DNA from: Perkinsus olseni
Lineage: Eukaryota
DNA length: 58,688 nucleotides
Direction of reading: 5' to 3'
Assembly: GCA_013115125.1 (NCBI GenBank)
Contig: JABANN010000163.1
Span: 1-58,688, forward strand
Part shown: one piece after another, positions 11,691 to 47,672 of the stretch
Layout: each line of letters starts with the position of its first letter
Numbering within the stretch: position 1 is the stretch's first letter
Notes under the pieces: model-generated
The model's database searches: none
Told to the model about the DNA's origin: nothing
Seen by the model: the letters and a program-made list of their open reading frames with translations, nothing else
Position numbers and translations under genes: made by a program

Positions 11691-14600
11691 ATGGACAGTA
11701 AAGACCGCCCCCTCGCTGCTTCCGAGGAGCACCAGGAAATTCCTTTGAAAGAGGTAAACTTGCATCGGTATAAATGGCGTGTTCGCCATTGACGATTGAA
11801 AGCTGTACAACAGCGCCGTGTCCTGAGAGAGAGCGCTCGTGCTGCGGATGGGAGAGCACTGGTGAGGAATGCGCGCTCCTTGAAGATGAGGGTTGCGAAA
11901 TATAACAACCTGTGAGCGTAGTGGTAGATAAAATAAGGGAGAACATGATGTCTCGTGATCTCGCTCTTTTCATCGAGTTCATCGTCCTGATCAGCGTATT
12001 GCCAGTGGATTCGTAGCGATAACATGATATTATTGACTAACTAGAACTTTCAGGTCAACGAATCTGTGCCGGCGTCCATTCCTCGGTTTTGTGTTCTAGG
12101 ATCGCTCACCTAGCACTCACGTATCGTTATTTCACTCCTCGTTTTTCGTATTGCTTTTCCGCTCAGCGCCTTACGATCTTCATGGACTCCAAGAACGTGC
12201 AGATCTTCATGACTATCGTCACCATTTTCGCTCTCTACGGTGATGACTTCAGAATCTTCGCAACGTAGGAGCTGCCAATCTTTTTTGTCATGGCGTAAAA
12301 CTCTAGATACAAGGCGGCGGATCCGGCTTTTTACGCCTCCTTCATAGTCGCGTTGATTCTCCTTGTTATAGAGCTCAGCATCAACTCGGTCATCCTGGAA
12401 GAGTAAAGAGGAGTGCCTTCAGAGGGCAGTCTCCGGATTTATAGCGACAGTTACAAGTGGTCGTTCTTCTTCTGGCTGGATTGTGTTGCAACGGTCTCGC
12501 TGATCCCCGACATTGGATGGATAACTGATTTCCTCGCTAGCCTCTATGAAATAGGTGAGTTGAGGTTGTGGGTTCAAATCCCACGGGTGATATCTTCAGG
12601 GGACTCGATGGGTCAAGGGGGAGGAGGGCAGAGCGGAGTAGCCAGAGCAGGCCGAGCATCCCGCGCGGGTGATGCACTGACTTCTAGAAGCAACGTGATC
12701 ACGGACTTTTCCAGGCTCGCGGGCAGGCCGGATAGTGCGCCTTGTCCGACTCGTGCGGCTACTCCGCGTCGTCAATCTTGCCAAGCTCTTCAGGAGTGAG
12801 CTCGTTGAGGATGACTGGGAGTCGTGTCCGCTTCTCGGGAGAGCTCTGGCTGGTTCGCTTGTGGCATTCTCTTCGTTTTGTTGAAATGGTGTGTATTACT
12901 CACTTTGCGTTATCATGAATACTGAAGGATTTACTGAGTGATGCCCCACGCCGTCCTAGCGCTCCCTTCCATTTTCACTGTGAGGAAGGTACATAAGCGG
13001 AGTAAAAAGTAGTTGGCGATATTTCAGGAGGCGAGAAAAAGTCGGAGCTGGATAACGAAGATGAGGAGATAAGCGATGCTGGAGACAAGGTCCTATCGGG
13101 ATTCGAACCCGAGTCGCTGGATTCAAAGTCCAGAGTGCTAACCACTACACTATAGGACCACGATTCTCTTACCGTTGGACATCAGCTCACCATTAAGGTG
13201 CACAGCCATACAGTCCTTTCCAACGAAGCGCCCTCGAATAAGCAGCGCATTGAAGCCAGCCGGCTGGGGAAGATTCTGAGTGAGCAGACGATTCGGAGGG
13301 TCATCATCGGTGTAAGACATCACTAGGGTCCCAAGGGGCGATGGTTTCGTTACCAACTTGGTAGATCCGGTTGGACTAGTTTATTCACTGACTGTTCAGG
13401 TGCTGTCGATGATGCTAGCATTGCCCTTGATCGAATTACCGGAGAGCAACCTTGCTTTCGAGACTGGCCTGGAGCAGCTCTTCTGGGCTGGCAGGAGCGC
13501 CTGCGGTATAACATCTTCGACAGGCGTCGCCACTGATGACTGCCTCCTATTCAGGATCTGCCCGCGATTTTATCTCTCTGGCGCAAGGCTCGAGCAACGT
13601 TTCAACCGCTTGTGAGAGCTCGTTAGAGAAGGCCCATTTCAGCCTGGATGGGTGGAAATTCATGATCTACGAGTAGGTATCGATCCTGAGAAAACGCTTG
13701 GATACTCATGGTTTGGCACGATCACCTCCGGCGCTCAGCAGCCACATAAAATCTCTAAACGGCTATCCAATAGGGATCATACTTCGTTTCGGTTCTGATG
13801 TTGCTCTGCTATCTCTGACATTGAGAAGGAAACCGATTTCACTATGCGAATAATTCGCGCACGACTCTGCTGAGCTTCTGTTCGAAACACTGAGTCATGA
13901 CGTCGTTCCGTTGGGCAGCATCGAAACTGTTTGGCTCAGCGGAGCCGAACTCGCTTCATTTTTGGACGCGTTGAGGCTATACTACTTCCATAGCAGGTAC
14001 TCGCAACTGTCTCGGTCGAGTGAGGATCGAGACGCATTAGTTAACGAGCCTCTGTTGTGGCTGCAAATACCGGACTTACAAGCGGATCCTCCCGGGAGAA
14101 TTAGAAGCATAACGTGAGGGGAGAACGAGCCTCGAGTATCGTGTCGAGAGTAGTTCTCATGGACCATTTCTTTAAGGAGCGTGTTCTCCTATGATTTGCT
14201 GGCTTGAGTCGGGTCTAAGCTCGATGATCGCACAAGTATCTTCGTCGGACTTCAGCGAGACAACCAGTCTCCTCGCTTCCGCTCAGTTACGTCGAAACTT
14301 CGCGTTGTCATCCGTCAGCGGCGAACACATACAGCCTTGACTTCAGAATTCCGACGAACGGCCTGCCGGGTGGATTCCACACTTGTTGTATGTAGCATAC
14401 AAGCTGTCGGGATCGAACTTACGCACTGTTAGGTCTTGGAACGAGCACTCCATGTTGTTGCTGGCGAGCCCATACCAACTGTGGGTTCGGCGCTGATGAA
14501 GTGGATGCTGGAGACTGTCCGTGGAGAGACAATGAAATACGTGAAGTCACGTGAGAAGCTGCGCTCTCGTCTGGAGAGGGATCACTCACTGCGCCAAAGA

Positions 14601-17600
14601 TCCCCTTGACGTATCGCGCACCCACGCGCATCTCGTGGCATCCTCTTTGAAGGACTGAATCTAAGCAGAGCAGTCTTGTATTGGGTTTAATAGACGTTAT
14701 TCTACTGTCGCAAGATACTCTCACATTTCTTTTGAATGGAGAAGCTCATCGGATCACCATGCCTCAGAGTGTCCCGTTGGTGCTTGGTTGTCAGATACAC
14801 CCCACCGATGTGTCGAGACCCTCAGTCGCCTTGTGCCGATTTGGTCGTTTCGGCGAAATTTCTGGACCGCAAACGTCGACAAGAAGAAGCCAAGATGTCG
14901 ATGCTACAAACTACCCTCATCATCATTCTGCTCGGCTTAGGAGCCATGCTTTTCAGTAGGCAAACAAGGGTGCGAGACTCGTCATTATCCAGTTCAATCG
15001 GATTGTCGCCACCCGTGCTCTGGTCAGGCTCCGACACTCAAAAAGTGGTGATCGCGCCAATAGAGAAGATGGTAAATATCGTCAAGCAGCTGGCCGACGA
15101 TCCGCTAAGGAAACCCGAAGTGGAGGACGAAGAAGAAGAATCTGAAGGCTCTGAAGATGAGTGAGACGGCTACCTTATTGTCGGGTGTAGCGGTGGCCAT
15201 AATTGTGGTGATAATATAACGATAACTCGTGGTGACCACATACATCCTCAAACAACGTGCCCATAGACAAATCCTTGAACATGTGCTCGGCATGACGCGA
15301 AGATCTCGGCAGCACTCTTATCCGCAGCATCATTCGGTTCGATACCCAGTGTATGGAGGGAATGCTCGTTATATAGAGCAGGTAGAGAAGTGATAACTTC
15401 GGACCAGCTGGGCGATAGCTGTAGGTCCTATCGGGATTCGAACCCGAGTTGCTGGATTCAAAGTCCAGAGTGCTAACCACTACACTATAGGACCTATAGG
15501 AGAGGGTTACACCTCGGCGACCCGACGAATGGCCTACTTGTTTCTCGAGAATTCAGGACACATCTAGTCTCGATCCTCCACCTCTTACGCCACTCCATGA
15601 GATACTGGACCGATGTTGCGCATGACAATCGTAGATATTGCATCGCTTACTGCAAAAAACGATTTACCTTGGTAAGGTCTTATCAGGATTCGAACCCGAG
15701 TTGCTGGATTCAAAGTCCAGAGTGCTAACCGCTACACTATAGGACCATAAAAATTTTGTCGATCTTCCTACCCGAGTGATTGAACTCTTTGGTGGCGTTC
15801 TTTTGCGGGAAGTCTTCATGCTCACACAAGGCGCACTCGGGACCTAAACAGCACGTATGGTTTGACGAGTGCGGCCCTGGCTCGATTCTTTCCAGTTTCG
15901 GGCTCTGAATAAGTGCTGACAAAGCGCCCATAACCTTGAATCACCTTATAGCCTTGAATACGGCCAACGAAATCGGCACCATTTGTGGACGAAACATTCC
16001 GATATCCGTCGCTAAACATTGAAAATTACTTTGCAATCGTCTTCACAATGGGGGATTCCAATCTCTCGTCTTGGAAGGTTCCCGTCTGAAGAACCGGCGG
16101 CCTTTGGACGGTCTACGACGCGGCAGACTAAGATGAGTAGCTAAGACCTTCCTTTCGTTCGTCTACCTAGCTCTTGCAGGATCAACCAAGATCTCCTCAG
16201 CTGGCGATGACAGGCAGATGGAGACTGCTCTATTGGAGAACACCATTCTGAAGATCGGCGGACTGCTGCGGGTCAGGAGTCGTGAACTGTTCATGAGTGA
16301 CTGCTACTACGTTGAGCTCAAAACGATTGGCACTCATCTTCCTCACTTAGAGCATTGGAATGCTTCATTTGTAGCCCGGATGATCCTTGGATGCAATGCG
16401 AAAGGAAATCCCACGTAAACTTCGTGCTAGGTTGGATTCGGGCAGGCCGGGGCACAAATTATAGGCAAGAATATGAGTCAGAGTAGCGGCAACTCCAGTG
16501 GCCTGAACATCATGTTACCCGGCAGGAAGGTGAGATTCATTCTTGACAGACTCTTAGAATTCTCCATTTCCCTCTCACGTCGACTTTTCGTCCTTAAATT
16601 GATGGCATGATTGTTTTTCGGAACGTATCCGAGAGTGTTCCTCTTCCCTGGCGACAGTTGAACAGCTGGCAAAGTTAAAGAATAAAAATTAAGGTTTATG
16701 ATCTGGGAAGCTCCCAGTTCAATTAACGTGCATGATTCATGAAATTCGTGAGGGAATTCATGATGTGCAACGAGTAGCCCACAGCAGCAGGTTAGTCCAT
16801 GACAAGCGGTTGCAGGTTGAAGGAGTTTACGCTTACTGCGACATACGAAAGTTCGGAGAGACTGCAGAATGCCTCCTCGAGGAAGTAAGACGCCCGGCTT
16901 CGACTCACAGTGTTGGTACTTGGTGCCCTGAGTTCCATCGATTCACTCGTTATGGCGTATCGCGGATCCACCATTAGACGACTCTCAGGTCATGGTATTC
17001 GTCAATAAAATTGCGCGGATTGTTCACATCTGCGCAGACGAGTGGGAAGGGGCCGCGAATAAAAACCTGGGCGACAGTTTCTTGCTCACCTGGCTGCTAC
17101 CGCAACAGAAGGATCCCGAGTCTGTTTCAGAGGTGAGAGAGTGCGCTGAGGAAATGCAAGATTGCAAGATTTAACAAATATCAGGTGATTTCAGCGTCAT
17201 CCCGGGGGAGATCAAGAGCATCGTTAAAGATACGTCGTACGTTGGCCTTAGCCTATCGAAGTCCCGCGACGAATTAGTGAAATTAGAAACGAGCTCGCGA
17301 AGTCGTGAGCTGGATCCATCTACATCACATTGCCTTCATCTCTCTCAGCTAACACGGCCAATACGGGCACGATAACTCAGGGAACTCGCGGGTGAGTATT
17401 TTTCGTTCGTGGCAATCAACGGCGGCAGTTTAGCTATGACACCCGGCCCCTTCAGGAGTGCCTCCCTCTTTGGTGGGCATTTTTTCCAAAACTTGCTATC
17501 TTGTTTTTCCAGAATTGGTCGATCAATTATCTCCGTTGCATGAATTCTCAGCCATGGACGTGCGCTGAAATCGCCCCTTCCAAATCGGCGCAGCAGGAAT

Positions 17601-22900: not shown

Positions 22901-25900
22901 CAAAGCGGATGGGACGACGATGGGGTCATATCTCTCTGAAGCGTGATAGGAGGTGCTGGTCAGCGCCAGTGAAAAACGATGAACCTCCGAAGGCTGACTA
23001 ATATCATTCTGACTGTCTTCAGATATACTGACGAAATGATGATCGAGATGATGGTGCTGGGTGAGCAGGCTAACGCTTTACGGCAGCAAATTGAGGAAGC
23101 GAGAGTGAAGCATTTGAGGATCGAGTACGTTCCTAGCTAGAGGCGTCACAAAGCTTGCTTCACATTCTTGAAACTTTACAGTGAGTTGTAGACGAAAATT
23201 CCGCGAGCTTCATCTCCATTCGAGAGCTCAGTAGCTAGCTTTTAGGAGGAGAGATACTCATGGTACTGAGTTGCATGTCCTTTAGAATTTAAGTCTTTCC
23301 TGGTCAACGCTAGCGCGCCTCCAATGGGACTTCCTGAGAGCACTACGATGTCAATGACGATCAGCTCAACTCAGATATGAGCGGCAGTTGGCGTCCACGC
23401 GAAAGTTGGTGAGAGACAGGCTTGAAAGCCACTGGTCGGGTGTGGTGGGCAAGGTCAATGGCAAGATGCTAGAGTTCGCAAAGGCCACATTGGGAGACGA
23501 GGAATATCCCTCATTCGTGAGGGCGTGGGTTCGATCCTCGATGGGGTTATTCTCATGCTCAGATTTCCGCTTTATTGGATCGCGACATTGAGAATCTCGA
23601 TCGATTTGAGAAAGCCCAGAACGCGTCTCTAGACGTCGAGCCTGTCGAGCTCGTTCCCGAAGTCGAAGAGAATATCGATGTGGCTCACCGGTGAGGGTCT
23701 TCGGTCGTACCGGTGCTGCAGTCAGGAACCTAGTCGTAGGATGCGACTAATTTCGTGATAAATTGCGATGAAATTTTCATCGCGTATTGTTTGCGAGGGA
23801 AAACTTGTTTCCACTATTTCCTCGCCGAGGTCAATGCAGTCGAGCTCGCGATGCATCCGCTATTTGTGAGTTGTCTCCCTGCAGCGCAACAGAATCGCTC
23901 AGCACGGATTCCGTAGTCTTTCAAAAATCTTACGAATATTATTTTCTCACTGGGTATTTGAATCAGCCTGGTTCAAGATCTCTGTGGTCCTTTCTGAAGT
24001 GCATTTCTGTTTCCTTAGGGTATGGACCTTGGTGGGAGAGCTGGGAAAGGACCACCCGAAAGCAATTGAGACAGTAGGCTTGATTGCATGTTCTTTCCCT
24101 TCACCTTGCATGTCCAACAGGTGGAACGATTCGGCCAGAGGCACCTTGAGAAAGCTTCTAAGAACTTCGTCCGTGCTACTGAAGCGGTAAGTCACGGCGC
24201 TGCTCTCGAGTCGAGAGTCTCGACGAAAGCCTGAGCCACGTGTTTTCGAAAAGCATACCTCGCACGTGAGCAATCTGAGTGCAAAGGTGACGGTCAATCA
24301 CTGCGGTTCCTTTCCTGGAGAATCGTGGAGGTTCGTTCGCATCCTGAGCTCGCAGCTCTGATTCTACGAAAGAGTGGTACTCCTTTTCTCATATTCATCG
24401 TTACTGTTGAGCAATGAGAGTTCCGGAACGACTTGAAGTGCAGGTGTTATCGCTGATATCCTGATCTCTATTTAGCTGCGTGATCGCTCGTTATTGTACG
24501 GCGCAGAAGCAGAATCTGCGGAAGAGCCTCGGCAAAAACAAGTAGGTCACAACAAGGCTCGGTGGTTGGTACTTTTGAGCTTTCGCAACGTGGGGGTGGC
24601 TTTGGTATACGAACACGGAAAGGCAAGGAAGGGCAGGTATCTTTGGATTGATTTCCTTTCCAGCCGACAGCGGGAGTTGGACACAGCGAAGAGGCTCGAG
24701 ACGACATGGCCGAATTCGAGGCGGTCATCAATAAGATGATGCTGGCGTCGAAACTTCCGACTGATGATGGTAGGTTTTCGGTAGTCAAAAGAACGCTTTA
24801 TTCGTCTCAAAAAAAGGCGTGACGATTTATCTATAGAAAAGGAATGAAGTAGATCGCTTGTGCGTCTGCAGTTGAATATGCTGATAGTTAGCCGGGCAAA
24901 GTGTTCTTTTTAACGGTTTTTTGGTAGAAGGCGAATATGCTTTCCAATCAAGCTATTCTGAATCAATCGCGAACAGCTGAAATTTATGGTGGCTGGAACG
25001 TGTGGTTCGAGTGGAGATTACTCTCTTTCTGTTGTTAGATGCAGTCGCAAATTCGAATATGATGGCGACCTTTAAGAGCCACGCTGATCAATTGGGTCAG
25101 TCTCCTAAAACTGGAGCTGAGGAAACTCAAGATGAGCAGGGTGAGCAAGATTGAATCAAGTTGACTTCCCATTTGGCCGCTCATCAGAGTCCTCAGCCCA
25201 TGTTGATGAGACTGCTCTCCTCGACGGCCTTTCACCGGTCCTGCAATCAGTGAGTACTGTAGCCCCTCCGCTGTCGGCTAAGTTGAAAATGGACAGCCCT
25301 CTATCGACGACCGAAGCCGAGGTTGCTGTTGCCAAGCTGCAGAGGTACGTTCAGTAGATCGATTCGTGGATTGTTGGGCGATCTTCCTGAGCTCTGACAC
25401 AAGAGATGTGGATGGGGCCGTGATTTCATGCATCATCATCAAACGGTGGAGATTTTCCGGGAACTTCCGGGCTCCTTATCTTTATCCTCTATTCTAAGAA
25501 CTTTCTCGTCCTCTCTCCTTCCTCGGATTCTCTCTTCTCTGTTCGATATACTTGAGGACGGTTGCAATATTTCCGTGCTATTGGAACCATAGTCCTCGAG
25601 AGCTGTACTTCGTTCTTGATTGTTTAGATCCCTCCAGAGCAGCTTGAAGGTATCTAAGGCCCAAGTTGGAGTTCTCGGAGTTACTCAAAATCGGCTAGAG
25701 ATGTAGGTTGGGCATTCTACCACTGTTAGTGTTCAGTTGGTACCAGTTACTTCGACCTGTTCGACGGGCAGCCTGCGGCAGGAAAAACGAAGGAGTCGAA
25801 GTGGGCGCGTCTTGCCAAATATGATATTATTGCTTCGCTCAGGAGTTCAATGCCCTCCGCCGATGAGCTCTATGTCGAGATCGATCTGCAACTGCAGGAT

Positions 25901-27042
25901 ATCCAGAGTTATTTGCGCTCGCGATCTGAATTTGCTGAGTAAGAGAGCTGGCGGGTTCGCAGGGTTGTTAGCATCCATTGGAGCAGATATCTCAAAGATC
26001 ATGTCGCACTGCAAAGGCTGATGGCGGATGAGCGGTGGGCGGCGGAGTGCATGCGAGAAGTAATTGCTAGTTCCGAGAAACGCGTTCTGGGAATTTCATC
26101 GTATCAGAACCGGAAGCTCGGGAGGTCTGTCGTCTTGGACGGTACAGCCCGCAAACCGAGGAAGGTGAGCAATGGCCCGCCCTGGGACTCGGCAGAAAAC
26201 TCGCAGAATGGCTACGAACCACCGCCTTTCGACCCAACCCTGCCCGGCACTCTGCTAACGGAAGACCAAGGCGTCTCAACTTTGGGTAAAAGTCCTCGCA
26301 GCGTGAGGAGGAGCATCAGTTCATCAGATCCGAGGATTCGCGAAGTTGCACCACCTGCGAGATTGACTGACGAGAAGCTGGCGCAAACCTTACGGCCGAG
26401 TGCTGGCGCACACAAAGGTGAGCCGAAAATGTGTCTATTGGAGGGCGCGCCCGGATTTGAACCGAGGACCTGCTGATCTGCAGTCAGCCGCTCTACCACT
26501 GAGCTACACACCCGATGGTGCTGTTGAGCGCCATTGTCTCTTCATCTGGTCAATCCTTACAGGTGAATCTGCTTGGTTCATACCGGCTGGACCTCACCGA
26601 ACAACATCCCTCTTGAAAGACGAAGATCTCGCTAACCACAGGATGTAACTGCTTTCCGAGGATAGTTGCTGGCCGAACTGTCGAGTGTTTTCACCGCTAA
26701 TTTTCTCGTAACTTTTCAGCGTGCCTGACAGTGTCTATGCAATATATATCCACTAGGGTGACAGCACAACTGGCGATCCACCAGGTGCTCTTCTTGCGTA
26801 GGTACACTTTCTACGACGTCAAAGCGTGTGACTTAGACCTCCAAGAGAAATTCAATCCCCACGCTAAATTTTTTCTTACAAGACATCCTCTTTCTAATAT
26901 AAGCGCGAAAGACAAGCTTATTCTAGATAAGGTGCGAGAGCCTGGGTTTTGTATTCCTGCCGGCACATTGCTCATCCAGGTGACCGCCTTAGAGGCGACA
27001 GAGATTCACAACAGCGATGATACCTCTGATGCTCCTACATGA
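19956..27042 (+). CDS. Large multi-exon hypothetical protein(s), partly coiled-coil; may be more than one gene
   Basis: ATG at 19956 (MSTLRKTFHDPLLSVDELM). Plus-strand exons include YEDAETRILEKLRRARKIARF, RKLVRDRLESHWSGVVGKVNGKMLEF and RYTFYDVKACDLDLQEKFNPHAKFFL. Final stop at 27042. Regular GT-AG introns. Confidence 0.55.
26442..26513 (-). tRNA. trnC-GCA: tRNA-Cys(GCA), antisense within an intron (~26418-26561)
   Basis: Reverse complement GGGTGTGTAGCTCAGTGGTAGAGCGGCTGACTGCAGATCAGCAGGTCCTCGGTTCAAATCCGGGCGCGCCCT is 72 nt with anticodon GCA. TTTT lies about 13 nt downstream. Confidence 0.95.
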
Positions 27043-31516: not shown

Positions 31517-31842
31517 GTAGGATGACTAGGGAGCAGCGATTCCTTCATTTTGATTTTCAGGTGTTACACGTTCCTGCGATAGTACGCCACCACGTCCTTG
31601 TCAAGTGCCCGGAGGAGGGAGAGTGGCGGCCTTATTGTGTGACGTAGATGATAAACCTGCCTCCTCGTAAAGATACCTTTTCGTTAGAATCCGGATTCGT
31701 GTTAAGTTAGGGTTGTGGCGTTGCGCACTGGTTGCTGGGCGAGGGCATCCCTGCTGATGTCCGAGAGCAACCTTCGCTGCTGTTAAACGCGACTTCGGGT
31801 TAGCCTGGAATTGCCTCTTGGCATCGGCGACACTAACACCGA

Positions 31843-32084
31843 GCTAGTCGTATCACCAGCATCTACTGTGGTGACACTATGCTAGTCGTATCACCAGCAT
31901 CTACTGTGGTGACACTATGCTAGTCGCATCACCAGCATCTACTGTGGTGACACTATGCTAGTCGCATCACCAGCATCTACGGTGGTGACGCTATGCTAGT
32001 CGTATCACCAGCATCTACGGTGGTGACGCTATGCTAGTCGTATCACCAGCATCTACGGTGGTGACACTATGCTAGTCGTATCAC
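31843..32084. repeat. Tandem array of a 38-bp unit, about 6.4 copies, each with an internal hairpin
   Basis: Unit GCTAGTCG(T/C)ATCACCAGCATCTAC(T/G)GTGGTGAC(A/G)CTAT repeated head to tail with no spacers. TCACCA/TGGTGA inverted repeat inside each unit. Confidence 0.97.
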
Positions 32085-33296: not shown

Positions 33297-35767
33297 CTAA
33301 AAGCTCGCCTCCGCCGCAACAAGCTGCCCAATAAATGTAAAACGCTGGTGTAATCTAGAAACCGGGGTGTACTCCTCGCACATTCCCCTACGTTCGTATT
33401 GACTGTAGCTGTGTATCCCCAGGAGAGCAGCCGCGGCGGCAGCTGGGTTGAGAGGACTGGCTTGAAGATATGCTTCCAGAGCTTGCTGCTGCTGATGCAT
33501 GAGAATCTGGGCTTCCTGCGCTGCCACTAGCGCCTGAAAACTGAAATGAGGGGAAGAAGAGCGTCTCTCGACCAACCTGTAGCTGAGTCACTCAGCTCTT
33601 CATCAGCAGCACACTCAGCCTGAGTGTGCTGCTGATGAAGAGCTCCCACAAGCTGCGTGAGAGCATTCACAGATTCCTCAGGAGTGCAAGGGCAGGGCTG
33701 AGAAGAGTGCAGTACCAAGGCGTTCAGCAGACTGTAGGCGGTGCAAGACTCCTCAGGCGTAGCAGGCATGGAACTGTTGGCGCTGCGATGGTACACCAAT
33801 TACTCTAGTTTTCATTAACACCCAAACGAAAGGGAATACACAATCGCCAGGGACCCAGTCGACAATCCTGGAACAGCGGGGCTAGGGATAAGAGAATTAC
33901 GGTGGACAGGTGGAGCGAGTCCGAGTGTAGACTGCCTAATGCAGCCGTAGGCGCATATCTGTACAGGGGTAAGCGGCAACGGACCCGCCAGACTACGTTG
34001 ATCCCATCGCTGCCCGAGACAGGCGTAGTGGCTGAAAGGCTTCCACTCGTCCCCAACGACCCTTCGCTAGTGAAGGGCGGTGTTCCCATCAACCCGCTGA
34101 CGCGAGCGGCGGAGTCCTGGAGCGAAAGACATTCTTCAGACAAGCAGAGTTCGGAGCCTCAACGAAAATTTCATCACCTTCATTCTTGTTCTCTCAGGAG
34201 TTTGTCTCACAACTGGCGTCATCACCTCCCGACGGTGGCGGTCGAACCTGATTCAAGCAATGATGGGGACAGTTACGCATCTTCGACGGACGTGAGAGGC
34301 GCCAGAAGGGATGTACTGATTACAGCTCTCTTCATAATGCTACAACGGATAGAGCCTTATTCATCCAACTTGATTCGACTAATATGAATAATATACCGCA
34401 ACGAAAGAGGAAGCAGCGTGCGTACTCACGTGCCAGTAGCGAGAATAGTTCCAGCTAGATAACGAAGAAATTAGTCGTAGCTGAGTCATGATTGATATCA
34501 GGCTGATGTGGGGCCAATGTATGTCAAATGCAGCTTGCTGATTGAAAGATCCCAAGAAACCTACACGGGAGTGGGACTGGCGGTGGAGGCCTGACTTCTC
34601 GACGTACTCATATCCACAGCACGCAAGTCCTGAGGAGAAGGTCGAAGCGGACATCCCGAGCTGAGCTCACCTCTCTTCCGTGAGCGAATCTACACTCACT
34701 GGCGGAGAGGGGGCAGGCATCCATCTCCCACCTGTCGCAGAGAGTCGTTTTTCTGAGAAATATAGATATTGGACAATACACTATGACGAAAAGCAACAAC
34801 GTTCAGCGTAACATACAAAGTATTGCGCTACAAAAAAGGGTCATTCGCTCACGTCGCACGGTCCCTACGACAGTCTGCGGTAGCGTTCTCAGCCCTCCCA
34901 GGCTGACGAATGAATTTTCGCGCCAGCTGAAGCTATCCACCAAGGCGATTTAACGGATCAAGCTATGAGGATCACTCGATGAGCAAGCGAAAGGAATTCC
35001 ACCTGAGATCCGGCGCGATCTTGAGGTCCTCTTCACCATGGGCGTAGAGACAGTTGTCACCGTGCACACAGCCACGACTAAAGCAGGGGGGAATCATTAA
35101 TCAATAGAAGCGGTTCTTCCTACTCGGATTTATAGTAGACGCACACTCTTGTCTTATGGAAGATACGAGTATCCGTGCCACTCCGAAGATCGTCATCTGA
35201 AGGTGAATGGCTGTGAGGCAACTCGTCGGGGAATCCGACTCGAGACGGCACTGGAAGAGCCACTGGAGTCAGTTGAATACACAGTAATAGCAGGATAATA
35301 TATAAGTTGTGCTACGGAACCTTCTCCTACTGACCCCGGCAGGTCGCATGCACTGGCATGCTACCAGTGTTGCTCATGAAAGCTCAGTAAAATCCGCGGC
35401 TATACCTTAGTCATGAAAAGTTTCCGCTGGACTGATGCGGTGCTGCACCACAAGACGGAAATTACGATACGTATATGTCTCAGAATATACCAGAATAGTT
35501 CGAGCGTCGACGGCGAGTTCATGGCCATCATCAGCCTATGTACTCGTCTCTTACCCGGAGTGTCTTCGGCCGACTCAGGGAATGGAGGCGGCTGCTGGAA
35601 CACTGAAGAGCGACAGTAGCCTAAGGCCACACCAGAGTCGATCCCTCACCTTGAGACATGAGAGAGCCGAGAGCCTTCGAGGTAGCGGTATCAGCAGCCG
35701 TGCCGACAGAGAACTCGTCGCTGATAGTAGTGGTAGAGGTTGGAGTTGGTGGGGAGGCTGGCATCAT
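33297..35767 (-). CDS. Tandem CCCH zinc-finger RNA-binding protein (TIS11/ZFP36-like fingers), multi-exon; 3' end approximate
   Basis: KTRVCVYYKSSRGCVHGDNCLYAHGEEDLKIAPDLRKTTLCDRWEMDACPLSASECRFAHGRE. Ser/Pro/Gln/Ala low-complexity flanks. Probable ATG at 35767. Confidence 0.85.
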
Positions 35768-39547: not shown

Positions 39548-39719
39548 TACACAAATAAGCATCATAGAGTCGCCCAGTGTTTCGGTACCACATTCGAAGC
39601 AGTTGCTAAGATAATGGGAAACTTTTGCTTTAGCGGTATCATCGAACCGCTGCAGACTGTAGTCTGCAGAAGTGCGATCTTCTCAGTCTTCGACCAAGAT
39701 TGAGCACATCGAAGATGTA

Positions 39720-42700
39720 GATCTTTCGCACCCCTTGAAGATCTGTTTAGGTTCAATTCGGTCTGGATGAGCCCGACCTGATGGCTCGATATGCTCAGCG
39801 CATAGCAGAGGTCTGTAGTGGCATGAAACCACGAAGCCTTGGTCTTGTAATGGTCGCATTTGGCAGAGCTGGGTAATGGAACGGGGCATTCGCTCTGTAC
39901 GTATGGACGACTCGATTTTGATATCATCGATGAATCCGATACCGAACTACCTGTATTTTCTCTCGGCTGCGCAAGATGAACGAGCAGAAACTTCTTAATG
40001 AGTGCGCGTTCCAAAGATGTGATTGTGATTGAGAGCGTGTTACAAAATACCAGGCCCCTGACTCTTCGCGGGCGTTTTGTAAAACGTAAAGTAAAAGTAA
40101 AGTAAACCAGTAAAACGCCGGGCGTTTTGCTTTGAGGTCGTTGTATCAACCTTCTATTCTATCAGCCATTACGACTTCGGCGTTTTATTTCAGAGTGGTT
40201 CACGAGAAGATGCTGGCACGGTTGTCGGAGGTTATACCGGGGCGATTACGATTATTTGGCCCGCTCGAGTTGTCAATGCTCTGCAGTGGGCTCATGAAAT
40301 TGCGATATTATAATGTGAAGCTTTTGCGGAGGTGAGTTGAGAGGCGCAGTTTGAGAGTGAGTGGAATCTCTGCGATTGAGACCTCAGTTGAACCCCTCGA
40401 CGTCGGGGTGAGTGTTGGATGATATTGTACGAATTTGTGAAAACTTTATCGTAGATAAAATGTACGGAAACCCGCCCTAGTTGAAGTTGTTCAATTTAGC
40501 CATTCGTCATCAATTCGGCTAGGTCAAATTTCCAGTGGGGCAACTGGGGCTCCCAGCCGAGGAGCGATGGCGAGCTGTTGATCGTCGTTTCATTTTAGAA
40601 TAGCTGATGAAGTGCCTCACAGGCTGCCAGTGCTAGAGCCGAGCCATATCAGCCAAATAGTCTACGCGTTCAGTGCGCTTGGCTATAAAGACCAGATGCT
40701 CTACGTGGATATTGCTGACGACGTAGGAACTAAGCATCATTGAAGTGGATTAGATGTTCGTCCGTCCTCTAAAGAATCGGGGAATCAGTTCTATGTTTCG
40801 CTTCTGCTCGCAGGTTTTGCGTCGAATAGAGGATTTCACGAACCCGGTCGAGCTGGTGCAGGTGGTCAAAGCGCTGGCGAAGGCTGAAGTGGTAATGCTC
40901 GGGTGGGGTGTGTTGCGAAAATATTACCACCCTACTGACGGCATTCGCGTCGTGTTGGTCGACATGAAGCTTTCCTGAATTTGTTGTATGCTTTTGTACG
41001 CCTTTGCTATGTTCCAAGCGTCTAACAGAGGATACGAGAGCTCGCAGTGGTATCCGTTACAAGCTGACCAGAGAAAAGAAGCTCTTATCTTCTGAGAGCA
41101 TTGCCACGAATTGCAGCTCTGGGTCAGAACGATGACGGTGGTGAAGGACAAGGCAAACTTTTCCCGATACGAAAACATCGTAACAGTCTTTGCGACCTGT
41201 TGAACCCGTTGCATACATTTCTTCGACTCGTGGATCTTGTGCGAATTTCGACGTGATTACTTTCACTCGACGACTCTCAGGTGATTCCTGGGTTGTGGGA
41301 ATGCCTTGCCGAGGCGGCTACTTCCCAGTGGGAGGAGATTATCAAAGGGGATATACCTAGCGTCGCGGTTCAGTATCTTGCGGCAGTGGCTTCCATAGAT
41401 GGTAAGAGGTCGCAGGTTCGATCCCGGCATGTGGTAGGGAGCCCAGAGTTCACTATTTAGTTCCCTAGGATTGGTTCGAGACTTCCCTTATGATTCTGTG
41501 TTGCGCAAGCTAATTGCCGTTAGGCAATTTGGTGGCGCGCGGTCATCCATCGGCCAATACACAGGACTTCGCGTCGGCCATGTGCACGGTCTTGCTAGAG
41601 AAGGGCGGCCGGCTCGACCTGAGTTTGGCAGCACGGGCGATAGGAAGTCTCGGGAAACTGCACCGGTACTTCGCCGTTGGGTAATTGCAAGATAGCAAGA
41701 TTCAGGTATAACGAAGAAGTGTGGAGTCCATTATTAGAGAATGTAATGAATAACATAGATCACCTTCAACCGGATCAGATATCGCAGGTGAAAACGGAGC
41801 ACTCCTGGGGAAGCGAGGTCGCCGTGTTTTTTAGTGGCCGATCTCAGTATTACAGTTGCCGCCGGAAATTTGAACTCATTTGTGCAAGTTTCGTTTTCTG
41901 GGGTTAGCCGGTTCTTCCGAAATTCGATAAATCATGCAGAACTTGAGAATTCTGCCGGTTTCCCATTTCGAGAGATCGATCAAATTGCTCACCTGCGCAT
42001 GAAATTTTGTTGTTAGCTTCTCGAAGTAACTTCGGTTTTTCCTCGAAAATAGTTTCTATTCTACCTGGGGCTTCAGGTATCTCTAGGGCTGGCGAGTGCG
42101 GGCCGAGGGCACCCGATAGCCACCCCATTGCTCGCAGGATTATCAGCTAGAGCGATTACTATAGTGGATGATTATGATGTATGGTGTGCTGCAAATACCA
42201 TGCAGGGGTAGGACCCGCGATCGATCCCTGGTGAGGGGATTTACCTATAATTAATCATTGCACTAGGTTTGCTGGCCTTGGCAAGCGCGACGTGAAACTG
42301 TTCGGTGCTTTGGCGAAGCACCTCGCCAAGAATGACAAGCTTTTAGAGGATGCGACCCCTCAGGGTTTGGCAAGCATCCTCCATTCAATGGCTAAAGTCA
42401 TGACAAAGCAAGAAAGATGGGGACGAGGAGATACTCGCAGATTCTCTCGTTGGTCTTCAAGTTCGAAGATCGCACAGGAATTGTTATTAGCGTGCACGCC
42501 CTCCTCGTTGGTTCGACCGTCCCGTTTTCTGCGCTAGCGGCTTTAGCACGGAGCAAGAGCAAAACTATATTCCCATCTTCTTCTTTTGGCCAGCGATAAT
42601 CGGACTTCTGGGATCAGGTCAGATATCTTCCTGTATATAATGGCCAACCTCGTGATCTCTAAGATATCAGCGTTCGAGGGGCAGGCTTTAGGAATGGTAG

Positions 42701-43700
42701 TCGGGGTTTGGCACGGTAGCAATCGTGAATAGGTGGTTCTGGAATTGAATTGGACGCGTCGGCGACACGGTGTCCTAGCAGTCATGGTACGTAATAGCTT
42801 CAGATGGTCGGAGCATGAAAGTGATGCCGTGGATTGCTGTAATGCTCGTTAACTTAGAGACGCGTATGAGCTAAACTGTTGCGGATCGGGTTTCGTAGAG
42901 CTTCTTGGTGCGCTAGAAAAAGAACTTCGTTAGATGCTTTTGCATCTCCTATATCGGGAGGCACGGTACGATGCATGATTTGTAGTTTCTGAAACTCCTT
43001 TCGAGGTTATGCTGAAGGTGAGCAGTTGTTATCAGCAGACTGTTTTCTATTGCTCTGAGTTAGTTCATCTCACTTCTCTGTCGAGGTTCTGTATGCGTAT
43101 GGTCGACTAAACTGCCACAACGAAGCCTTGGTAAGAGCCTGCTTGAAGCAGCTCCGAGCCATTGTCGACGAGCTCAATCTAGTTTCGGTGCATATGATAT
43201 CGGATGGACTGAAGGTGATAACAATAACTAAGCGGGTCTCTTCCCGGCTCGGTGAAATGCTCGTTCTCCCTCGACTCGAGAGACGAATGTGAAACGCGCG
43301 AGCATCAGCTTCTTTGCTACCCCGAGTATGTATACCGCGCGGTTCGTCATCCCTCGCTATTTCTCTGTCCAAATTCGAGTTTCTCATCGATTCCTTTTTC
43401 CTACACCACATTGACTGATATCTGTGAGTCTTGCCATATAGAAACAAGCAGTATTTCATGTTTCAACCAACAGCCAGGGCCGATATCGAAAGTGAACGCA
43501 ACATACGGGTGCCAAATCAAGAAAGATTGTGGGTTAATCGGCGATGTTGCTTCAATCGATTCATTGACGTGCACTTTTTTGTGCATAGAGAACATTCAAA
43601 TGTCGCAGCACGCTTCGTTGTTCGTGTCTGGCGGCATTTTCTCTTGCCATCTATGAGTGTCGGTGGTCGTCCCTTGCCTGAACATCGAGAGTACTAATGA
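39720..43700 (+). CDS. Helical-repeat protein of the heptatricopeptide (HPR)/RAP-FASTK type, likely organellar RNA-binding; multi-exon, ends approximate
   Basis: Repeated ~37-aa motifs: FGPLELSMLCSGLMKLRYYNVKLLRRIADEV; LEPSHISQIVYAFSALGYKDQMLYVDIADDV; ATPQGLASILHSMAK; LYAYGRLNCHNEALVRACLKQL. Confidence 0.7.
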
Positions 43701-43967
43701 GGCATCGTGAGTAGTGATGCATAATCTTGCGCGTGCTCACGTTTTCTAGTCAATGGAATTCGTTCAGGTTCTGAAAATCAAGGCTCAAAACTTCCTAGTT
43801 TGCTTTTTCTCACCACTTTCAGCGTTCTTGTCGCATCTTTCATCCTCTATTTCCGTCTCTGAAACAAAGATCGTGTTAAGATTGTACAAGAAATAGAAGA
43901 AAAGCTAGTACTACCCGAGCTCTCCTCGAGCCCGTCATTATCCTCGCTAACACTATCACTTCTACTA

Positions 43968-44590
43968 TTGGTATTAGGTCTTGGTCTATCTCCGGCAGAA
44001 TCTGTTGTGAAAATTTGTGAAAAGTTTTCCCCATCATGGGGGCGCTATATATTACCCTTGGTCTCATTCTCCAGCTGTGATATACACCTGAGAGTCGAGC
44101 AGCACAAGAATTTGTTTACCGGCGATCGCACACCTTCTGAATTTTTCAACTGCACTGATGCTGGGAAGCGAGAAATTGATGTCGACTGCAATGCCGTTTT
44201 CAACCTGAAATATCGCTCGAAGGGATCTGCGAAATATCCGTGTGCCAACCTTGGAGAAGAGATCGTGGATGATATCGTTTTCATCATTGGTACCTCGAGT
44301 AAGTGAGCGATACCGCGCAGGCGAGACAAAGGTTACCATGCGCACTGAGATTCCTCGCTCTCTCCGTCTCCTTAAGAATCATCTTGGCTACTTCGACCTG
44401 GCAAAGTCTCAAAATTCACATGGAAGCGAGATTCACCCTATCAGCCTCCCAGTCTCCAGGACAATCATCACGTCTCAGCTTGCCGTTGTCGATAAGCTAC
44501 GGAATACATACGATGTATGCTATTCGAATGTATATGTTACTCTCTTCACCGCATCAGTTATGATACTATCGTTTCCCTTGAAGGTATAAG
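43968..44590 (+). CDS. Hypothetical, possibly secreted Cys-containing protein; ends approximate
   Basis: ORF 43968-44306 is protein-like with a hydrophobic N-terminal region, and probably splices into 44326-44589. Confidence 0.3.
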
Positions 44591-46451
44591 AAATCATCGA
44601 GAAAGCGGAGGGGGGAGGGGGCGAAGCAGCTCTGAGAGGCAACGTTCTCTCTAAGGAACTTTTATCGGTAGCCGAGGTATAGGAGAATCCAATTCCAGGA
44701 GCGCTAATATTTCGGTCCAAGCTCTAAGGATGGCTGTAGAGTGATTCTACAGACGGGCGGAGCGAAAGCTCAGAGCGAAACCATCGGCGTCACGCCAGTG
44801 TGTGTAGACAGTTCGGGGCGTGCGCGTCCGGCTCTGCGCGCGCGTACCCCGAGGGGTTAATGGTAAACATTCCAACAAGATCGCCAATTACTAGACCCGC
44901 TACGAAGACACCTCTCGTGAGAACATTAGCGACCGCGCTCGCCTCTCCGGTGGACCTCAAGTTTATTCCACGAGTATTATAGGGCAGGATAGGAGCAATG
45001 GTATGTTGTACCCCGCATCGCGCTCGCCACGATTACCATCATCGGTTACCGAATTTTGTCCCGGTAATAATACAGATACTGTGTAATGCCGTTAGAAGTT
45101 AATGGCTAATAAGTAGGCGATATCTTCTTTCCTATTCTCCTAGTCAGCTTTGAAGACTCTCCTCTTCAGCTTCTTACCCATTTTCCTAGTTCCTGTTTAC
45201 GGATCGCTAGTGGGTGTCAGGCACTCGGAGCACTATCGGTCGAAATCGAAGGGTTGCTTAGGAGAAGAATCGAGGAGCTGGGGCAAGAAACAACGTACGG
45301 GATCGTTGAGTTCGATGATGGTAATAAGGGCTACCTTATTAGGAGTTGAGGTAGTTTTGGTATCGCCTCAAAGTCCACAACGTGAAGCTGCATTCCATTC
45401 CATCCACTTATTCTTACAATAACAAGAGATGCTGATTGGTGATAGTCGTGTAACAACAGAATAGAATACAATAGTACAAAGCATGACCCTACTACCTGTT
45501 CCACTATTACGGTCGACGTTCAATTTTGTTACAGATGCCGAGGATGCTTTTGATATCGCTGATGAGCCAGAAGAAGACCCACTGGAAGACTTAGTCGTGC
45601 GGGAGGAAGTAATGACGATGGTCTGATACCTGAGATATCTGTTGATTACGTCCCACTACTTTAACGCGTGACTATCTCTGCTGACTATCTTTTTCGCGGC
45701 GTAGTTCAAGAATTCTCGGGCCGAGAATCTCGGCTGTTGCGACTATGTATAGTGATCCTAGTCGACTAGACTGACCGCCACGCAAAAGAGATTGTAGTTT
45801 CATGTTCTTCTAGGTCGAAGAGCCATGCGCAGACGAATCTGCGTCTTCGGTGGCTGCTCATCCCTCCAGCGTGTCTGATATTCGCGCCTACTTGAATCAT
45901 AGTGGTACTGAAGAACTTGCAGAAGATTCGCCGGAGAAGCCAGCGGCCAGAACAGGACGGCGGAGCCGCAGCAAGAGAATGGCCGCAGCCACTGCTGATA
46001 AGCAGCACGTTTCTTGACATGGTTTCTGTTAGATCGGCGACTTTGGTTGGCAGTGATAACGGGAGAGTCGCTTCAGCGGCGAGCGGGCGCATTGGGGTTG
46101 TGCCACCAACCGAGCAGCCCTCCACCCAAGCCTTTTGCGTCCACTAAGCATGCTTGGATATCCAAAGCCCTTGAGGTCTCTGAGCGAGATTTCGTTCTCT
46201 TTCGTATCATAGGTCGGCCCTGAATGAAGGAAGGCAAGTGTTTTTTTGTATGTACTATGTACTTTCTCTGTGTGCTGGTCTGTTCTGGATCCAGGCAGCG
46301 TCATCCGTCGGCTACTTATAGTTCTACGTTCGACGGGGGTACCGCAGGAAAAAGTAGAGCTAAACTTGCAACCGCGATTATGGGAGGGAGTAGCTAAGTT
46401 TGTCTTCCTCCATGGATGATGAATCTGTTATCTCTCAGTGGTTGATTTCCA

Positions 46452-47672
46452 ATGCCCGCAGGGACGGTCTTGCCACGGAGGCGGAGCAGAGTAGTAGCGA
46501 TAAAGTGACGGACGTATCTCGCGAATATTGTCGTTAGTTATTTTCCCTGCTGCTTGTCGGCGTGGTGAGCGTAGTGACTGTGCTGAGCAGCTGGCAGCTG
46601 TTAGGAAAATCTGCGTCACTATCGGGCAGAGGATTGAGGCTTGGTGAGCTGCACGTTCGCCTTCTTAGCGACAGTTTGCCCGCACTAGGTGCATGGCCGG
46701 GTGGTCCTGAGGGAAAATTTGTGCCGTTGCGATCTCAAGTTAACTACTTTGACCCCGCTAATTTACGGATCGGGCACGCATGGGATATCCATAGGTGAGT
46801 TGGGGCTTCACCGGTCTTTTTCTAACGAGTAGTCATGGGTTCGAATCCGGCTTATGAACGACCGAATCGTTCTCTCCAGGTTCGGCCGACGGACTGCTGA
46901 GAACGGCCCTTTCATTTTGGCCGGTGTCGAGGTGCCTGATTGCCCTAATATTGGCGTCGTAGCTCATTCGGACGGAGACGTACGTACCCTGGCAGTTCCG
47001 CATGGACGAAGTCCATCGTCAGGTTATCTTCCACAGCGTGACTGATGCGATCCTCGGGTCGATAGGGCTGCGAGATATTGGTCAGTACTACCCCGATACA
47101 GATCCAGAATGGTGGGCCAACCTGGGAGCTAGCTCCTGCGTGTGATGATCACTTTGCTGAATTCAGGAAGGGCCAGTCATCGGACAAGTTTTTGCATGAT
47201 ACGTTGAAGAAAGCTTCAGACTTGGGCTTCCGAGTGGTCAGTGTGGACGTTACGTTAGTGCTTGAGCGTCCGAAAGTGGGAAATATCATGCCGGCCGTGG
47301 TGCAGGGTTTGCGACAAGCGATAGGCGATCATCGGGTAACGCAGGTAGTCGTAGCCTTCTTGTCGTGCTCTCTGCAGCGCTGTTCGTTGAACGTTTTGCT
47401 TTCACACTGAGCTTGATAGTGGGAGGGGCACGCGTATCGGTTGAGTTCGTTCGGCTCGTTGCCACCGAGTCGGTGGGCTAGTCGCACGATTCGCTGTTCG
47501 CTTGCACGTAGTCCCGGGTTCGATATTCGGTCCAGTCCACTAGTTTGCCCTCTCTTAGGCCTCTGTGAATGTCAAGGCTCGAACGTCAGAGAAGCTCAAT
47601 GCTGCTGGCGAAGGGAAGTCCGTAGAAGCTCACGCGGTGGTAGTAAATCGCCCCCCTGATGGCGTCGTATAG
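46452..47672 (+). CDS. ispF: 2-C-methyl-D-erythritol 2,4-cyclodiphosphate synthase (MEP pathway) with an N-terminal signal/transit-like leader, multi-exon
   Basis: [96 protein letters not shown]. Leader [31 protein letters not shown]. Confidence 0.95.
47467..47538 (+). pseudogene. Decayed tRNA-Pro-like pseudogene in the last ispF intron (sense orientation)
   Basis: 72 nt GAGTCGGTGGGCTAGTCGCACGATTCGCTGTTCGCTTGCACGTAGTCCCGGGTTCGATATTCGGTCCAGTCC aligns without gaps, by eye, to the typical eukaryotic tRNA-Pro layout (TGGTCTAG..TATGATTCTCGCTT..GTGCGAGAGGTCCCGGGTTC). Its stems are broken. Confidence 0.65.

Follow-up and report, generated by a model that had tools for sequence, protein, structure and literature searches.

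Do tRNA genes lodged in the introns of protein-coding genes follow a rule of orientation? The question is raised by a stretch of Perkinsus DNA (58,688 nt, here called the window) in which full-length tRNA genes, and short fragments resembling tRNA, lie in introns of plus-strand genes. A preliminary description held that intact copies are antisense to their hosts and that decayed relics are sense; it listed four tRNAs of the first kind and six relics of the second. Nested tRNA genes offer a natural way to examine template sharing by RNA polymerases II and III, and a real orientation rule, if true, would mean that tRNA-processing enzymes police pre-mRNAs.

Judged by its protein matches, the window is gene-dense Perkinsus genomic DNA, nearest to P. 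olseni: annotated P. olseni proteins match single exons with identities of up to 100%, and Perkinsus proteins match the genes exon by exon. A Pfam search with 150 ORFs, out of a total of 162 with 85 aa or more, matched only TCP-1, YgbB, and subtilase and so contributed little to gene structure. All three tRNA-Gln genes are hosted by an ion-channel/adenylyl-cyclase fusion gene on the plus strand (∼11.3-19.5 kb), which in tblastn is colinear with ORFs of the mRNA-like loci L001 and L002 (12.1-19.5 kb) and with several long proteins (including P0027 and P0062). Introns were verified by homology (n = 39, 7,708 nt), in a set that is biased since the relic introns were deliberately included. Two other routes to introns were dropped. 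Our own dynamic-programming gene finder was unreliable because codon bias is weak; it over-predicted introns (from hundreds to more than 1,700) or fused and missed genes, and its output was not used. A screen for introns bridging ORFs returned 394 plus-strand and 383 minus-strand candidates and did not discriminate.

The four tRNA genes are the following (all were found by ARAGORN, the Rfam tRNA model, and our own tRNA model).

13088-13159, minus strand: tRNA-Gln(UUG) no. 1 (Rfam 72.9 bits; own model 76.6 bits)
15423-15494, minus strand: tRNA-Gln(UUG) no. 2 (Rfam 72.1 bits)
15675-15746, minus strand: tRNA-Gln(UUG) no. 3 (Rfam 62.8 bits)
26442-26513, minus strand: tRNA-Cys(GCA) (Rfam 68.0 bits)

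All four score as cloverleaves above the curated covariance-model threshold (gathering threshold of 29 bits in Rfam), and in our own model they range from 68.9 to 76.6 bits. The full-length tRNAs of the preliminary description are thus real, three with a UUG anticodon for Gln and one with GCA for Cys. A T-run is present downstream on the tRNA strand in three cases: T5 at 48 nt for tRNA-Gln no. 1 (within a small host exon), T6 at 16 nt for no. 3, and T4 at 13 nt for tRNA-Cys. The 80 nt downstream from tRNA-Gln no. 2 contain no T4 run. tRNA-Gln no. 3 is 94% identical to no. 1 and has one mismatch in the acceptor stem. A recent segmental duplication of the three tRNA-Gln copies was considered and rejected, with identity stopping at the 72-nt tRNA body and flanks that cannot be aligned.

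The host exon and introns around these genes are as follows.

13028-13089, perhaps to 13134, plus strand: small host exon (…GEKKSELD…AGDK), located by homology, adjoining or overlapping tRNA-Gln no. 1
13090-13185, plus strand: host intron with tRNA-Gln no. 1, 96 nt with the putative donor at 13090
15161-16213, plus strand: host intron with tRNA-Gln nos. 2 and 3, ∼1 kb, approximate (alternative 15120-16190), from homology and junction scoring
26418-26562, plus strand: host intron with tRNA-Cys, 145 nt, GTGAGC…TTACAG, from P. chesapeaki protein P0067

Colinear homologs bear out the claim that all four tRNAs are antisense within introns of plus-strand genes. tRNA-Gln nos. 2 and 3 and tRNA-Cys each lie wholly between two exons of the opposite strand. 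P. chesapeaki P0067 runs unbroken across 26418-26562 (…GAHKG followed directly by DSAWYIPAG…), and tRNA-Cys takes up half of that intron. The ∼1-kb intron falls between residues ∼596 and 613 of L001p; in L003 the orthologous position holds an intron of ∼97 nt that is free of tRNA. The L003 ortholog is without the 13090-13185 intron.

tRNA-Gln no. 1 is the exception, with an overlap of at least 2 nt with the upstream exon. The small exon at 13028-13089 matches L001p, L003, and the P. olseni proteins P0001 and P0076. The two annotated P. olseni proteins run on, at this position, through 15 codons of antisense tRNA sequence and stop exactly at 13134; because they read into the tRNA there, the arrangement of tRNA-Gln no. 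1 and the exon is, on these protein sequences, common to other P. olseni isolates. Every GT from the conserved part of the exon to the in-frame stop at 13156 is inside tRNA-Gln no. 1 (the alternatives to the donor at 13090 are 13113, 13128, and 13135; the alternative acceptor is 13197). The splice donor of the host would thus fall within the tRNA gene, and with it the coding exon and the tRNA gene would overlap by 2 to 47 nt. Two of the tRNA-bearing introns, of ∼96 and 145 nt, are tiny and the tRNA makes up half or more of each. The window offers three unusual concrete cases, namely mini-introns nearly filled by tRNA genes, a donor that appears to lie inside a tRNA, and an overlap between exon and tRNA.

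These loci are best read as four ordinary Pol III tRNA genes, nested on the opposite strand in introns of two plus-strand protein genes. They are probably independent transcription units that would use internal A and B boxes, and the T-runs close downstream from three of them are candidate terminators. The host transcript would remove them by splicing, as intron sequence.

The six claimed relics are in other introns, each of them skipped by annotated proteins of Perkinsus relatives, and the relic sequences quoted in the preliminary description are present where it placed them.

12563-12584, plus strand, intron 12555-12599 (45 nt): relic 1, a variable-loop-like segment plus a perfect T arm
23517-23562 (46 nt), plus strand, intron: relic 2, GGTTCGATCCT, one position off GGTTCRANYCC
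41407-41428, plus strand, intron 41402-41523 (122 nt): relic 3, directly 3′ of the 5′ splice site
42213-42239, plus-strand intron 42208-42266 (59 nt) with the tRNA-like match on the minus strand: relic 4, intron supported by P0068-P0072
46838-46848, plus strand, intron 46795-46879 (85 nt) of the IspF (YgbB) gene: relic 5, exact GGTTCGAATCC, intron supported by Pfam YgbB and P0071/P0072
47467-47538, plus strand, IspF intron 47337-47558 (approximate): relic 6, claimed as tRNA-Pro

The sites are of unequal quality. Precisely the 15 codons of the relic 1 intron are missing from P. olseni P0001 and P0002. This relic has a local match of 15.9 bits to the Rfam tRNA model (model positions 43-63, E 0.98 for the 251 nt searched) and 13.8 bits in our own model (E 0.039); over the two models its match is confined to positions 44-65. 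Relic 3, in an intron that is not short (supported by P0068-P0072), reaches 14.8 bits in our model (E 0.018, 41380-41436, plus strand), with no Rfam tRNA match at E up to 10 in the 1 kb searched. Relic 5 reaches 15.9 bits (E 0.008, 46785-46856, plus strand), again with no match in the Rfam tRNA search. For relics 3 and 5 the full-length alignments gain only ∼1-2 bits over the T arm alone, and they enter constrained coding exon. The exact GGTTCRANYCC, the B-box consensus, is present in these three relics (at 12571, 41415, and 46838). Relic 4 scores 13.9 bits (E 0.034), but on the minus strand (42194-42258), with no plus-strand match there. Relic 2, whose intron is borne out by P0073 and P0074, has no match to the Rfam tRNA model and 7.8 bits in ours (E 3.2), which is background. 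The supposed full-length tRNA-Pro relic does not hold: Rfam reports nothing in the 901 nt searched, with E allowed up to 10, and the score of 8.2 bits in our model (E 2.4) is background. Hence, among the six sense relics originally proposed, nos. 1, 3, and 5 are supported on the sense strand, no. 4 scores better on the opposite strand, and nos. 2 and 6 are at background. None of the six is recognizable as a full-length tRNA or as a multi-arm remnant of a cloverleaf.

Could all six be chance matches, with neither history nor function? Part of the evidence is of the kind that chance would give. In the whole window the Rfam tRNA model reports none of the six at E up to 10, and one (relic 1) appears weakly in sub-windows. 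T-arm-shaped hairpins with at least four pairs occur at the shuffled rate, with little excess once the tRNAs are excluded (13 vs. 11.5 expected), and the 7-mer GGTTCGA, outside the tRNAs, likewise has little or no excess (17 vs. 9-13 expected). ARAGORN relaxed to an 80% threshold makes 48 calls in the window, 44 of them false; two overlap relics 3 and 5, and these calls were not used as evidence. In addition, the pattern was picked after inspection of the data.

The exact motif and the ranking of scores point the other way. GGTTCRANYCC has seven matches in the window where 0.49 are expected; four are the tRNAs, and the remaining three all lie on the plus strand. In the sense orientation of the 39 verified introns (the biased set), three are found against 0.038 expected, and there are none in 53.7 kb of related loci. 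The comparison of the B-box motif with expectation, which the preliminary description had proposed, thus gives an excess in this window. With our own tRNA model, applied to both strands of the whole window, the four tRNAs, together with three antisense shadows of them, are followed by four relic sites, at 13.8-15.9 bits and E-values of 0.008-0.039 that are rough, having a short calibration; ∼0.1 matches at E up to 0.04 would be expected in total. The next best match in the window has 10.6 bits, and the top score in the equal-sized control (53.7 kb) is 9.5 bits. Among 16 introns compared pairwise, the four highest similarities are all between relic introns. That mutual similarity is restricted to the T-arm motif (8-22 nt), and a repeated introner or tRNA-derived SINE family was rejected, with no repeat family over the relic introns in the window. 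On these sequence statistics, it is very unlikely that the three motifs arose by chance, and a tRNA-derived origin is reasonable; chance as the source of all six relics we regard as highly improbable. The tRNA origin of the fragments is read from 17-22 nt apiece.

A second alternative gives the sense motifs a function, either as putative TFIIIC sites without a tRNA gene (ETC-like) or as T-arm-like hairpins of the pre-mRNA. Three sites keep an exact B-box core, with the pairing of the stem partly lost (5/5, 4/5, and 3/5 pairs), and three of the relic motifs start 9-14 nt past the 5′ splice site. At protein junctions the introns are common to P. chesapeaki and therefore are not young, yet the motifs are sharp. 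Human intronic tRNA-like sequences are reported to boost splicing, in either orientation (PMC7722341). Against this, there are only three sites, and a sharp B box is what a search by B box selects, the detection of relics being skewed to sites that still hold one. We regard a function of this kind as highly improbable.

The most probable account, in our view, keeps two things apart: antisense nested Pol III tRNA genes in introns and, separately, sense T-arm fragments that are most likely tRNA debris. Three other introns would hold sense copies, 17-22 nt long, of the variable-loop/T-arm/B-box region, and these would most likely be the worn remnants of tRNA genes or of insertions derived from tRNA; the very high copy number of tRNA genes in the lineage could supply such debris.

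Are the two connected by orientation? As first proposed, tRNAs enter introns both ways; sense copies fold, are cut by RNase P and RNase Z, and then decay and shrink, while antisense copies persist. The descriptive part agrees with the window: four of four intact tRNAs are antisense, the three exact B-box matches outside the tRNAs are all sense, and the three best sense relics score above all background in a search of both strands. Moreover, two relic introns are at minimal size (45-46 nt), and in Caenorhabditis elegans same-strand intronic tRNAs are reported to have a lower Pol III occupancy than those on the opposite strand (PMC4999229). The numbers, however, do not carry a rule. Two host genes, with three introns between them, supply the whole intact set, in which one tRNA-Gln accounts for three of the four members. 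Among the four relic matches above background, one is antisense (42194-42258, minus strand), and two claimed relics are at background score. Four intact tRNAs against four relics give a one-sided Fisher p of ∼0.07, before non-independence is considered. When two mismatches are allowed, the motif has no strand bias in the block of plus-strand genes (10 plus vs. 9 minus). Because the exon that precedes relic 1 is ancestral coding sequence, a whole sense tRNA could never have occupied that place without large deletions. Furthermore, 56% of the intronic tRNA genes of C. elegans are in the orientation of the host and intact (Sagi et al. 2016, PMC4999229), which implies that, in general, sense copies are not weeded out by RNase P/Z cutting the host pre-mRNA.

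The contrast between intact antisense genes and sense relics is thus real within the window, but the sample is too small and non-independent for a rule, which is unproven. What stands of the earlier interpretation is the antisense intronic tRNAs and the sense B-box-like motifs in introns; the orientation rule is not established by one 59-kb window, and the decay of sense copies is, to us, an unlikely explanation. A broader proposal, that tRNA genes and fragments colonize and reshape introns in Perkinsus, that an insertion can donate the splice donor of a mini-intron (as at 13090-13185), and that orientation decides which copies stay intact, seems to us quite unlikely. If true, tRNA genes would be one origin of new introns in this lineage, and of B-box elements carried in introns. 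With nested genes and debris kept apart, what the window offers is a measurable excess of T-arm fragments in introns, in a genus of parasites whose great number of tRNA genes was known before.

For Perkinsus, our literature search found no paper on tRNA genes in introns, on how these are oriented, or on intron motifs that resemble tRNA. Among known systems, a tRNA-like structure, mascRNA, is excised from the Pol II transcript MALAT1. In Arabidopsis, an intron of GUT15 contains a tRNA-like sequence, described as a tRNA fold that RNase P/Z can cut from a Pol II transcript (PMC6152437). The two cases supply the processing on which the preliminary description drew. Both are, as described, full and productively processed tRNA-like folds, whereas no sense relic of the window folds fully, as judged by covariance-model score. 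The ETC sites of yeast have a B box only, are defined by TFIIIC occupancy, and are mostly intergenic. Like them, the Perkinsus motifs are B-box consensus sequences that stand alone, with no tRNA gene, but they are intronic.

The nested genes themselves are of a known kind. In C. elegans, according to the same report, nested tRNAs are, like those described here, independent Pol III genes within introns of protein genes, with conserved pairing of tRNA and host and an effect of orientation on Pol III occupancy (PMC4999229). In that set 56% share the orientation of the host, and no antisense rule applies there; all four genes of the window are antisense and two are in introns of ∼96-145 nt; also unlike the C. 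elegans cases described, one Perkinsus tRNA overlaps a coding exon and would carry the splice donor of its host. The human nimtRNAs (Hoser et al. 2020, PMC7722341) are likewise intronic and tRNA-like, some are reverse-complementary to the host, and they are reported to be able to influence host splicing. They derive from insertions of mitochondrial DNA and have kept the cloverleaf, whereas the Perkinsus relics are nuclear-type T-arm fragments of 17-22 nt.

The nearest comparison is in the same genus. In P. marinus, Dada transposons of 4.7-11 kb are reported to target tRNA genes and to split them (Kojima and Jurka 2013, PMC3706591). A Pfam search and a repeat comparison within the window found no Dada element, target duplication, or transposase at the sites described above. 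The same work counts more than 500 copies of five tRNA types in P. marinus. In such a tRNA-rich lineage tRNA-derived debris is plausible, and numerous tRNA genes subject to insertion and turnover would be a ready source of it.

ARAGORN finds four tRNA genes in the window, all four on the minus strand, and the same four are recovered by Rfam at its curated threshold (72.9, 72.1, 68.0, and 62.8 bits vs. a threshold of 29).

tRNA genes of the window (ARAGORN and Rfam)
13088–13159, minus strand, tRNA-Gln(UUG) no. 1 (Gln1)
15423–15494, minus strand, tRNA-Gln(UUG) no. 2 (Gln2)
15675–15746, minus strand, tRNA-Gln(UUG) no. 3 (Gln3)
26442–26513, minus strand, tRNA-Cys(GCA)

The three tRNA-Gln genes are 94%–99% identical to one another over exactly the 72-nt tRNA body, and their flanks give no alignment. 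On the tRNA's own strand, runs of T occur downstream from Gln1 (T5 at +48), Gln3 (T6 at +16), and tRNA-Cys (T4 at +13); there is none within 80 nt downstream from Gln2.

The preliminary description had placed all four antisense within introns of plus-strand genes; ARAGORN and Rfam confirm the strand, and colinear homologs the position in introns. Long homologs were found with the frame 12407–12796 (profile-free search) and by a scan of metagenome contigs. Two are mRNA-like loci, L001 (one ORF, 992 aa) and L002 (one ORF, 944 aa), colinear with the plus strand of the window from ~12.1 to 19.5 kb. In the product of the gene hosting Gln1–3 (11.3–19.5 kb), a class III nucleotide cyclase domain is joined to a voltage-sensor ion-transport domain, an architecture typical of alveolates.

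Introns and exon of the host genes at the tRNAs
13028–13089, plus strand, 62-nt exon before Gln1, its peptide recognizable in the L001 protein, in P0001 and P0076 (both P. olseni models), and in metagenome contig L003
~15160 (exon end) to ~16214 (next exon start), plus strand, intron of ~1 kb with Gln2 and Gln3 (alternative pair 15120/16190)
26418–26562, plus strand, 145-nt intron (GTGAGC…TTACAG) with tRNA-Cys, a P. chesapeaki protein being contiguous across it

Read-through of the 13028 exon meets a stop at 13156. Past the conserved part of this exon, the only GT dinucleotides are at 13090, 13113, 13128, and 13135, all inside Gln1; taking the acceptor at 13185, the Gln1 intron measures 51–96 nt, and the coding exon and the 3′ end of Gln1 (on the opposite strand) overlap by 2–47 nt. 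Models P0001 and P0076 terminate exactly at 13134, and the donor that the Gln1 intron uses is a prediction from sequence. The T5 terminator of Gln1 falls within the 13028 exon, where the host strand reads Glu-Lys-Lys codons.

The window has a G+C content of ~50%. Of 162 ORFs that are 85 aa or longer, 150 were scanned with Pfam; the plus strand gives matches to TCP-1 chaperonin and IspF/YgbB, the minus strand one to subtilase. Matched exon by exon to database proteins, the window is Perkinsus DNA and nearest to P. olseni: protein identities per exon are 87%–100% there vs. ~90% for P. marinus and ~50%–90% for P. chesapeaki (all called hypothetical proteins by the sources). Two neighboring genes are joined in one protein (39781–47645) in P0071 (P. 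chesapeaki) and P0072 (P. olseni):

39.8–45.6 kb, repeat-protein gene
46.4–47.7 kb, plus strand, IspF (YgbB) gene

Models P0069 and P0070 stop before IspF, and the fusion probably reflects the merging of gene models in part of the public annotations. Immediately downstream from the TCP-1 chaperonin gene, a 38-nt unit is repeated in tandem (31798–32101, ~8 copies, 70%–96% identity). Tandem repeats of 12 nt (51113–51232) and 54 nt (51533–51718) lie amid long minus-strand ORFs and probably encode repetitive protein. Two unrelated perfect palindromes with a 1-nt spacer occur at 6527–6585 (arms of 29 nt) and 33594–33644 (arms of 25 nt); the arms are 100% complementary, and relaxed Rfam searches give there only sub-threshold miRNA-like hairpins.

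Six further intronic segments had been taken for decayed sense-strand tRNAs (relics 1–6). Their sequences are present as quoted, each inside an intron skipped by annotated Perkinsus proteins, and the intron of relic 3, at 122 nt, is longer than had been assumed. With E up to 10, the Rfam tRNA matches in the whole window are the four tRNAs only (16 matches in all); sub-window searches report relic 1 alone (12563–12584, 15.9 bits, model positions 43–63, E 0.98 in 251 nt) and nothing for relics 2, 3, 4, 5, and 6. Since Rfam scales its E-values by the number of families (4,227), a single tRNA model was built from 19 tRNAs of E. coli K-12 and three of the window, the cloverleaf being given by hand, and searched without filters on both strands of the window; its E-values are rough. 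Up to an E of 10 it yields 29 matches; the true tRNAs take the top four places (68.9–76.6 bits), and three more matches are their antisense shadows.

Relic introns (all plus strand), proteins that skip them, and matches to the purpose-built model
Relic 1: intron 12555–12599, 45 nt (P0001 and P0002 lack exactly 15 codons); match 12563–12584, plus strand, T arm only, 13.8 bits, E 0.039
Relic 2: intron 23517–23562, 46 nt (P0073, P0074); match 23483–23549, plus strand, 7.8 bits, E 3.2, background
Relic 3: intron 41402–41523, 122 nt (P0068–P0072); match 41380–41436, plus strand, 14.8 bits, E 0.018
Relic 4: intron 42208–42266, 59 nt (P0068–P0072); match 42194–42258, minus strand, 13.9 bits, E 0.034
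Relic 5: intron 46795–46879, 85 nt (P0071); match 46785–46856, plus strand, 15.9 bits, E 0.008
Relic 6: intron ~47337–47558, ~222 nt (boundaries approximate); match 47475–47539, plus strand, 8.2 bits, E 2.4, background

After relics 5, 3, 4, and 1, the next best match in the window scores 10.6 bits, and among the 4 matches from a control search of the related eukaryotic loci L001–L007 (53,697 nt) the top score is 9.5 bits. Every one of the four matches with an E of 0.04 or less lies on a relic site, which is not chance. On the sense strand, relics 1, 3, and 5 stand above background; relic 4 is a further candidate, fitting the antisense strand, relics 2 and 6 belong to the background, and the "full-length tRNA-Pro relic" claimed for relic 6 finds no support, Rfam also being silent. 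Most of each relic score comes from the variable loop and T arm. For relics 3 and 5, alignment at "full length" gains only 1–2 bits and extends into coding exon, which for relic 5 carries the …DIH… motif conserved in IspF; what resembles a D arm in relic 5 overlaps a common splice-donor string, GTGAGTTG, present in two other introns. When 16 introns are compared in pairs, the four strongest similarities join relic introns only, covering just 8–22 nt of the T-arm motif, and none of the repeat families in the window takes in the relic introns. Apart from tRNAs and shadows, the window has 22 weak model matches at E up to 10 vs. 4 in L001–L007, of similar length; the surplus could reflect tRNA-like debris as a general background, or else composition.

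The motif GGTTCRANYCC occurs seven times on both strands, whereas shuffling predicts 0.49 (100 shuffles, none with more than 4); four occurrences are the tRNAs, and the three others, at 12571, 41415, and 46838, share the plus strand. Over the 7,708 nt of 39 introns supported by homology, it occurs in sense three times vs. 0.038 expected (0 of 3,000 shuffles reached 2) and in antisense four times, all true tRNAs, vs. 0.028. This intron set is biased by relic introns verified on purpose; taking all window introns would perhaps double the expectation. In the 53.7 kb of L001–L007 there is no match. Looser measures show little excess and are unimpressive: 13 non-tRNA hairpins of T-arm shape in which 4 or more of the 5 positions pair vs. 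11.5 expected, 17 non-tRNA matches to the 7-mer GGTTCGA vs. 9–13 expected, and 35 matches with up to two mismatches to GGTTCGAATCC vs. 17.8 expected. About 12 of these 35 are tRNAs, relics, and their near-palindromic opposite-strand images, and the remaining ones between 11.3 and 48 kb lack strand bias (10 plus vs. 9 minus).

The channel-cyclase ortholog on L003 (57% identity to database protein P0002) belongs to a more distant relative. The 19.5 kb of L003 covered by ARAGORN yields no tRNA, nor does any of L001–L007. An intron of ~97 nt stands in L003 at the position of the 1-kb Gln2/Gln3 intron, and no intron stands at the position of the Gln1 intron. The first part of the channel-cyclase gene in the window (12164–12795) has four mini-introns of 42–47 nt, plus 232-nt and tRNA-bearing introns; L003 (10022–10864) has none of the four mini-introns, that of relic 1 included, and neither the 232-nt nor the Gln1 intron. 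Common to both are the intron that comes next, following …RRVIIG, and the one at the 1-kb tRNA-bearing position. Such differences indicate lineage-specific intron gain or loss.

The preliminary observation is correct for the most part, and three of the six relics do better than chance: the three sense-strand T-arm/B-box fragments are real features. A tRNA origin, inferred from 17–22 nt per site, is their simplest explanation in a genus for which PMC3706591 counted over 500 copies of five types of tRNA, along with transposons targeting tRNA genes. Perkinsus introns also show signs of debris derived from tRNAs.

That intact intronic tRNAs are antisense and decayed relics sense, as had been proposed, is unproven as a rule for tRNA survival. 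The intact set comprises four tRNA genes, spread over three introns of two host genes, three of the four being one tRNA species; comparison with the model-supported relics (three sense, one antisense) gives a one-sided Fisher value of ~0.07, which ignores non-independence. For Perkinsus, a literature search turned up no account of tRNAs within introns or of intron motifs resembling tRNAs. Of the tRNA genes in C. elegans introns, 56% have the orientation of the host, and same-strand ones show lower Pol III occupancy (PMC4999229). Sense copies are thus not purged from introns as a general matter, though orientation can matter. In human, intronic tRNA-like sequences affect splicing in either orientation (PMC7722341). 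Nested intronic tRNA genes are of a known kind; what is unusual here is the overlap of exon and tRNA, with a predicted splice donor inside the tRNA gene.
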